In this document: positions 22,099 to 23,340 of the stretch, one piece after another | Layout of the letters: each line of letters begins with the position of its first letter | Numbering within the stretch: the stretch's first letter is position 1 | Assembly (NCBI GenBank): GCA_021469345.1 | Contig: GCA_021469345.1_3049.1 | Length of the DNA: 64,000 nt | Strand: one strand, 5' to 3' | Source of the DNA: a phage | Notes under the pieces: model-generated | What the model saw: the letters and a program-made list of their open reading frames with translations, nothing else | The model's database searches: none | Told to the model about the DNA's origin: nothing | Translations under genes and position numbers: made by a program

Positions 22099-22344
22099 AT
22101 GATTTTTGTATTTGAATTTATGAATGATGAATTCGATTATGCAATTTTTAACGCATTGCATAATCCTGATTTAAGTGAATTTAATGAAATGTTTTCTGAC
22201 GCTTTGAGTATGTCAGAAGAATACTGTGGAGAATGTCAACGTGTTTGTGTGACAGTCTTTGAAAACAAAGAAAAGACGTATGAAGAATTATTCTTTGACG
22301 CTAATAAAGCCACTGAATGGTTTATCGAAAGAGGATTTGCGTAA
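22099..22344 (+). CDS. hypothetical acidic protein (81 aa)
   Basis: ORF track. Confidence 0.5.
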
Positions 22345-22958
22345 TGATTAAATTGGTATTCGCTTATTCTCCAACTAAAACAGTCGAAGGCTTTAATGAA
22401 TTAGCATTCGGTTTAGGTGATGGTTTACCATGGGGACGAGTTAAAAAGGACCTTCAGAATTTTAAAGCTCGTACTGAAGGTACAATTATGATTATGGGTG
22501 CTAAAACGTTCCAGTCATTGCCTACATTACTTCCAGGTCGTAGTCATATTGTGGTGTGTGACCTTGCGCGTGATTATCCTGTAACTAAAGATGGCGATTT
22601 AGCACATTTCTATATTACATGGGAACAGTACATAACTTACATTTCTGGCGGCGAAATTCAAGTGTCAAGCCCTAATGCACCATTCGAGGCTATGCTTGAT
22701 CAGAATTCCAGAGTAAGTGTAATTGGTGGACCTGCTTTGCTATATGCTGCGTTACCTTATGCAGATGAAGTAGTTGTTTCTCGCATCGTTAAAAGGCATC
22801 GTGTTAATTCAACGGTTCAATTAGATGCAAGTTTTCTTGATGATATAAGCAAGCGCGAAATGGTTGAAACGCATTGGTATAAAATAGATGAAGTAACAAC
22901 TCTTACGGAATCAGTATATAAAAATGAAATACCGCGGGGTGGAAAATATGAATTTTAA
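22344..22958 (+). CDS. frd: dihydrofolate reductase
   Basis: [31 protein letters not shown]... from ATG 22344 (SD GAGGA); 204 aa, about 11 aa longer than I recall for T4 Frd. Confidence 0.85.
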
Positions 22959-23295
22959 TTATTACCCTATTCTATTAGAAAAAGACGCGAAACAGCCAAA
23001 GTGGCAAGGTCCTCAGTTTATTAAAGGTGTCTATCAATTAGTAGTTCCTAAAGACAAGATTTATAGCAGTTGTTTCACTGAATCCGCTTGCAGTATTTTC
23101 GGTAATAGTTCTCCGTATTGGAATTTTGATATAAAACTGGATAGAAATATCGATATTTGGTTGAAAGCCATGGATATTGGTAATATCACGTTTGATGAGA
23201 ATAATTATCATATTATTGGTCGCTTTTCCAAACGTGGTAAAGAATTATATTTCACACCTGAAATTGAAAGAAAATTTGATGCTAAACCGTATTGA
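22948..23295 (+). CDS. hypothetical protein (115 aa) between frd and td
   Basis: ORF track 22924..23295; SD before ATG 22948; no recognisable motif. Confidence 0.45.
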
Positions 23296-23340
23296 TTATT
23301 TAGCTTCATAAAATGTATTATAATTTATATAAGGTACTAA

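Follow-up and report, generated by a model that had tools for sequence, protein, structure and literature searches.

A small RB32ORF229c-family gene between frd and td in a Tequatrovirus and its probable loss from phage T4

Introduction

In phage T4, the genes for dihydrofolate reductase (frd) and thymidylate synthase (td) are immediate neighbors: the frd stop codon and the td start codon overlap (...GTATATAAATGAAACAATACC...), and no gene is found between them. In RB32, RB14, T2, T6, AR1 and Shfl2 the position between frd and td is occupied by one and the same small gene, RB32ORF229c (Shfl2p237 in Shfl2). The GenBank record of RB14 uses this name and adds the note 'flanked by 9 bp repeat'. The gene is already known as a hypothetical protein annotated in hundreds of genomes, including those of T2 and T6. 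Searches of the literature with locus names, accessions and the PHROG number returned nothing on the ORF, and it is not mentioned in a review of T4 relatives and in one accessory-gene screen.

Here we describe the frd-td junction in a stretch of phage DNA of 64,000 nucleotides (GenBank assembly GCA_021469345.1, contig GCA_021469345.1_3049.1), which we call the window. As an overall explanation we favor, with a probability of roughly 80%, an ordinary gene of PHROG 1928 that is absent from T4, probably by loss; that its product is a non-catalytic binding protein is a far more tentative part of this explanation.

Organization of the frd-td junction

The phage of the window is a Tequatrovirus; over the 8 kb around the locus, it shares about 95% identity with phages PST, T6 and SHFML-11. 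The frd gene (22344..22958, +) consists of 204 codons followed by TAA at 22956-22958, and its product matches Pfam DHFR_1 (PF00186, E = 2.9e-19) and phrog_316 (E = 2.9e-57). It starts with the ATG at 22344 (MIKLVF...); the mechanical ORF list opens the same frame earlier, at 22317. In an alignment with the frd genes of T4 and AugustSocin, its 3' end is collinear with T4 frd as far as ...TESVY. Codons 1-193 are the equivalent of T4 Frd, and codons 194-204 (22923..22955) form a C-terminal tail beyond the DHFR domain.

The end of frd overlaps by 11 nt (ATGAATTTTAA) with the start of a 115-aa ORF (22948..23295, +; ATG 22948, TGA 23293-23295), the RB32ORF229c orthologue. An alternative in-frame ATG at 22924 would lengthen this ORF to 123 aa, adding MKYRGVEN (22924..22947). 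Because all homologues of the 115-aa protein start with MNFNYYP, and because in the common allele, present in most relatives, a stop immediately follows the upstream ATG (ATGAAATAA), we take 22948 as the real start. The homologue in L004, one of the more distant loci considered below, also has a short N-terminal extension (MVKNV).

According to the junction listing, a spacer of 45 nt (23296..23340, +) separates the 115-aa ORF from the ORF containing td exon 1 (23341..23892, +), which runs to the first stop within the intron. The td gene resumes after the I-TevI-carrying intron (I-TevI 24020..24757) in the ORF 24902..25216, a layout as in td of T4 and T6. A sequence-only reading of this DNA had described a frd of 204 codons with an 11-codon C-terminal tail, a 115-aa ORF at 22948..23295 and a td start at 23341, and had contrasted this with adjacent frd and td genes with overlapping stop and start codons in T4; all of these coordinates hold, and the T4 junction (TATAAATGAAAC) does have this overlap.

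The flanking genes are the same in T4 and in the window. Between them, the window has a segment of 419 nt that is absent from T4 (22920..23338, +), as delimited by a three-way alignment with T4 and AugustSocin together with the T4 junction; in phages with the three-A form described next, the segment measures 417 nt. It begins at a run of five A's (22920..22924, +), where T4 and most relatives have three (TATAAATGA). The 419 extra bases are bounded by AAATGAAAY repeats, of which the left copy (AAATGAAAT, 22922..22930, +) was located from alignments and the junction listing, and the right copy (AAATGAAAC, 23339..23347, +), which includes the td start codon, from alignments with T4. The T4 junction consists of exactly one copy of the AAATGAAAC repeat, and the T4 Frd protein has 193 aa.

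Occurrence of the gene in T4-like phages

The sequence-only reading regarded the 115-aa ORF as an unrecognised sequence that formed a small insertion. Compared with T4 there are indeed 419 additional bases and 11 additional frd codons, but the arrangement is not unusual. The ORF is conserved at the same position in T2, T6, RB14, AR1 and further relatives, a finding that the sequence-only reading had itself named as refuting an insertion. A total of 363 phage records contain its DNA (22900..23345), and 359 of them cover at least 80% of it; for comparison, the adjacent 3' part of frd occurs in 509. A tblastn search with the 115-aa protein retrieves 581 records, 266 of them at 99% identity or higher (including T2, T6, RB14, AR1, PP01 and RB3), and the copies of T2, T6 and RB14 are 99-100% identical to the protein of the window. 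The RB32ORF229c copies match the window also in the 45-nt spacer and the flanking repeats, and RB14 in addition has the 204-codon frd. At the DNA level the identity to these copies is about 97-98%, with differences at synonymous sites only. From IMG/VR, only 4 close loci were obtained.

Nor is the sequence without a family: residues 4-111 of the protein match positions 2-125 of the 126 positions of the phrog_1928 profile (E = 8.4e-36), and the family motifs LLExDxKQxxW, (H/K)G(I/V)Y, GN(I/V)xF and IGRFxKxGxxxxF are all present. When 1.84 billion representatives were searched exhaustively with an HMM, 22 hits were obtained, of which 20 are full-length relatives of 95-116 aa. The two long hits (P0021 and P0023) consist of repetitive sequence of a eukaryote-like kind and were set aside as spurious.

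Homologues are found directly after frd and before td in Enterobacter phage CC31 (CC31p239), Edwardsiella phage PEi26, Serratia phage CHI14/Kosakonia phage Kc304 and metagenomic T4-like contigs. Those of the named phages belong to the same family (26-47% identity, 105-119 aa) and occupy the same slot with an overlapping start; in the distant loci generally, the gene usually overlaps the end of frd. Most distant genera have a second gene of 113-124 aa between the homologue and td. This gene is a paralogue of the first (BLASTP E down to 7e-14 in a local database of 12 sequences), and both match phrog_1928 with E-values of 1e-33 to 1e-39. The order frd, ORF, optional paralogue, td is seen in our loci L003-L009, L021 and L022. 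Whereas CC31, PEi26 and CHI14/Kc304 thus have the first gene (A), a second gene (B, 113-124 aa) and no spacer, the window has A alone, followed by the 45-nt spacer. In Tequatrovirus, the frd-td junction is usually filled by a gene of the RB32ORF229c family, to which other T4-like genera add a tandem paralogue.

The position directly behind frd and ahead of td is kept in the window and in eight of the nine more distant contexts examined. The exception is a 109-aa member on an ENA contig (L023, ERZ27260015, 1248..1577), which lies upstream of an RlaP-family gene, with a RegB-like gene in the region. Since this member adjoins the RlaP gene, the linkage to frd and td is not absolute. Among phage records, none falls into the band of 60-90% protein identity to the ORF of the window. 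A Logan contig from a metagenomic T4-like phage (L003, SRR23814683, 5405..7739) has the order frd-A-B-C-td with all genes overlapping. Its A is the homologue of the ORF of the window (63% identity), and its C (6670..6879) is a 68-aa ORF with 81% identity to a further Tequatrovirus allele.

This third junction allele, a 68-aa ORF of phrog_9550, is present in 147 records and overlaps both frd and td, for example in phage KMB26 (L017, 2538..2744). In KMB26, IME339 and JS98 it occupies the same frd-td slot as the ORF of the window, and it is an unrelated protein. The td 5' end beside it differs (MKQYQFLIKDIL...). The versions in Tequatrovirus and in Dhakavirus JS98 share 98.6% DNA identity, which suggests a recent exchange between genera at the frd-td locus; on the evidence of this allele, the locus clearly takes part in lateral exchange.

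Taken as a family, the ORF is very probably a genuine, vertically conserved small gene, ordinary in T-even phages. Its weight as a discovery is small; the value of the comparison is mainly corrective, in that only a minority of the relatives of T4 have its textbook frd/td overlap, the junction exists in three segregating alleles, and several public labels of the ORF are unsupported. Different public genomes label it 'putative homing endonuclease', 'putative glucose-1-phosphate adenylyltransferase' or 'putative dihydrofolate reductase' (records MZ501052, MZ501089, MZ501046, MZ501066; NC_054937, OR125554; MW749001, OK272476). None of the three labels is supported by any profile search performed here.

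Coding constraint and the frd tail

Two features of the locus could give rise to doubt. The ORF is left without annotation in several T2 and PP01 records, and the frd tail hinges on a length difference of two bases in a homopolymer; the ORF might then be a non-coding leftover, or the tail an artefact of a frameshift in sequencing or assembly. The pattern of variation argues otherwise. Among nine full-length Tequatrovirus copies of the ORF, codon position 3 accounts for 19 of the 22 variable sites, and the pairwise pN/pS values range from 0 to 0.22, being at most 0.064 in 33 of the 35 informative pairs. This pattern of substitutions indicates that the ORF is under strong purifying selection and is no chance reading frame. 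The confident AlphaFold model described below and the conserved family motifs point in the same direction.

With respect to the tail, most Tequatroviruses with the ORF read ...GTATATAAATGA at the junction, their Frd has 193 aa, and the ORF starts with an ATG 20 nt past the frd stop. The window, RB14 and BECP11 read ...GTATATAAAAATGAAATACCGCGGGGTGGAAAATATG instead, with two extra A's and three linked substitutions (TATAAATGA to TATAAAAATGA). Owing to the two extra A's the TGA is out of frame, and frd runs on for 11 more codons to a TAA within ATGAATTTTAA, which sits inside codons 2-4 of the downstream 115-aa ORF. The tail arises incidentally from a two-base difference in the run of A's just before the T4-type stop.

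Nor is it special to the window: the exact 46-nt junction is found in 11 phage records that correspond to 8 phages. An identical junction is present in RB14, BECP11, slur03/08/14, BYEP02 and BGP, and that of Ec_O157kw departs from it by a single base. Counting near variants, the in-frame tail is present in about 18 records, and a frd of 615 nt, as in the window, is annotated in both RB14 and BECP11. Because of this recurrence, the sequence comparison identifies the tail as a real minority allele shared with RB14-like phages and not as an error. The five-A junction with its three linked substitutions is identical in 8 independently sequenced phages. Both the leftover ORF and the artefactual tail, extremely improbable in our estimate, are refuted by the codon-position, pN/pS, model, motif and junction evidence.

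The tail can also be compared with the ends of more distant DHFR genes. In seven such loci the DHFR has 197-206 aa and overlaps the downstream start in six of the seven; in L021, frd stops 2 nt short of it. The DHFR of L004 ends with ...KREF, at the same TAA as frd of the window. A descent of the tail from an ancestral DHFR C-terminus is conceivable, but apart from the 9 nt that the overlap with the downstream gene dictates, the tail and the L004 end (IETVYGEKREF) agree, by hand count, in only about 56% of their nucleotides.

Direction of the difference between T4 and its relatives

While the DNA of the ORF is found in 363 records, the T4-type junction is found in only 32, about half of which are T4 isolates or derivatives (counted with a 34-nt probe that can seed only where the T4-type junction is uninterrupted). 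The arrangement of T4 is therefore an exception and not the reference state. Since the ORF is widespread, has homologues in the same slot in distant loci, and the T4-type junction is rare, the polarity is probably the opposite of an insertion, with an absence in the T4 lineage. Parsimony across genera likewise favors a loss in T4. Its most likely cause is a deletion in which the two start-codon contexts of the form AAATGAAA(T/C) recombined; this would leave one copy of the repeat and thereby create the textbook frd-stop/td-start overlap of T4 and a few relatives. The 8-mer AAATGAAA is a frequent start context, with 24 copies in the window versus 14 expected.

A second difference to T4 is found at the other end of frd. 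Just upstream, and ending at the frd start, the window contains an 81-aa ORF (22099..22344, +; RB32ORF231c in the T6 annotation) without a Pfam hit; T6 has one further ORF (RB51ORF237) at this site. T4 lacks the 81-aa ORF. The 71-nt spacer between frd.1 and frd of T4 aligns with its first ~35 nt and its last ~30 nt, and hence looks like the relic of an internal deletion. As only the two ends of the ORF survive, T4 appears to lose genes nearby, which we count in favor of a loss at the frd-td junction as well.

The same junction may be read in the opposite direction, namely as a mobile cassette (a free-standing gene of the homing-endonuclease type, or an insertion with target-site duplication) that entered a T4-like junction in the ancestor of most Tequatroviruses. 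The presence/absence polymorphism with clean 9-bp direct repeats is in line with such an event, as a 9-bp flanking repeat is also expected from target-site duplication, and the left repeat goes on resembling the td 5' end beyond the 9 bp (AAATGAAA..TACC), a feature that fits an insertion at a junction like that of T4. Moreover, the locus is mosaic, with lateral exchange seen for the 68-aa ORF between Tequatrovirus and Dhakavirus JS98, and four BASEL-collection records carry the label 'putative homing endonuclease'. These observations count against a loss in T4, but several others count against a cassette. Among 23 family members no nuclease family matches at E-values up to 1, and there is no invariant acidic, His or Cys residue. 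With 115 aa the protein is short for a homing endonuclease, and the 419-nt segment contains no transposase or integrase; its only gene is the 115-aa ORF, which is without a known domain. In eight more distant T4-like loci, this slot is likewise occupied by homologues (26-66% identity), which looks like vertical descent rather than repeated homing. The strong purifying selection and the near-invariance of the gene across hundreds of phages are likewise at odds with a cassette, and we consider its entry very unlikely and a loss from the T4 lineage probable.

Predicted properties of the product

The ORF encodes a mildly basic, beta-rich protein of about 13 kDa; the pI within the family is mostly 7.7-9.4. 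A first structure model from 4 sequences was poor (pLDDT 61) and was replaced by an AlphaFold2 model from an alignment of 18 sequences (pLDDT 85, pTM 0.78), which has eight short or long strands and one helix. Residues Q16, W19, G27, G91, K95 and G97 are invariant in the family, and at no position of the family alignment is a D, E, H or C invariant or nearly so. Pfam gave no match at E-values up to 1 for the protein of the window and no family common to the 23 members; nor did the 115-aa protein match anything in NCBIfam, PADLOC or, by sequence and profile searches, the PDB, and no recognised nuclease domain (GIY-YIG, HNH, LAGLIDADG, His-Cys box, PD-(D/E)xK or EDxHD) was found. A structure search against BFVD returned only uncharacterised proteins of other T4-like phages. 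In two independent searches, roughly half of the weak structural neighbors were OB-fold domains (RPA, SSB, S1, HIN and others), and the order strand-strand-strand-helix-strand-strand of the protein is compatible with an OB fold. Taken together, these features speak against an enzymatic or nuclease function and are compatible with a small binding module.

A joint production of the protein with DHFR and thymidylate synthase is suggested by predicted co-transcription and by the frequent start/stop overlaps with frd and td. We tentatively propose that the product is a dispensable, non-enzymatic binding protein, for protein or nucleic acid, that would act in early or mid infection beside the enzymes of nucleotide-precursor synthesis.

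The neighborhood of frd and td may instead be incidental, as for many small early genes of T-even phages, and the protein an accessory counter-defence or host-takeover factor. The gene is dispensable, since T4 and the phages with the 68-aa allele are without it; its product is small, phage-only and has no known domains; its site is a variable hot-spot at which three alleles occur, and one member (L023) is found in a different accessory-gene context. Anti-defence genes are typically fast-evolving and patchy, however, whereas this protein is 99-100% identical in more than 260 records and its position is kept across genera. No literature or screen hit was found for such a role, and PADLOC, whose library models defence and not anti-defence proteins, gave nothing. 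We regard a counter-defence role as doubtful and rank a binding role in nucleotide-precursor metabolism above it; a role as homing endonuclease is unlikely.

A more specific version of the binding role, rather unlikely in our view, is that the PHROG 1928 proteins, including the tandem paralogue, are dedicated partners of phage DHFR and thymidylate synthase with a fold absent from the PDB. They would then act as an adaptor in the dNTP-synthesising enzyme complex, or as an OB-like RNA- or DNA-binding regulator of the operon, and the loss in the model phage T4 would explain why they were never studied. The family is tightly conserved, phage-specific, without structural relatives and, with one exception (L023), located next to DHFR and thymidylate synthase, which gives it a modest appeal for knockout or pull-down work in T2 or T6.

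Signals at the junctions and in the spacer

Signals in the RNA were sought at several levels. Rfam, at gathering score, gave no family for 22000..25400 and no group I intron model, despite the I-TevI-containing td intron. RNA structure at the two junctions showed no signal (z = +0.90 and -1.05, the latter for the spacer), and no terminator-like site was found. Promoter-like matches are at background level (13 versus 9.7 expected); one of the matches in the promoter scan is at 23292..23321 (9 of 12 positions). The spacer contains sigma-70-like hexamers, a TATAAT (23319..23324) and a MotA-box-like AGCTTCA (23302..23308), all of which are consensus resemblances only.

The 45-nt spacer is identical in eight of nine other Tequatrovirus copies, whereas synonymous sites of the ORF differ by up to ~24%. 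As the spacer is near-invariant while the synonymous sites vary, the comparison suggests that it carries constrained translation or transcription signals for td. An AAGG (23331..23334) lies in the spacer, 6 nt before the td ATG.
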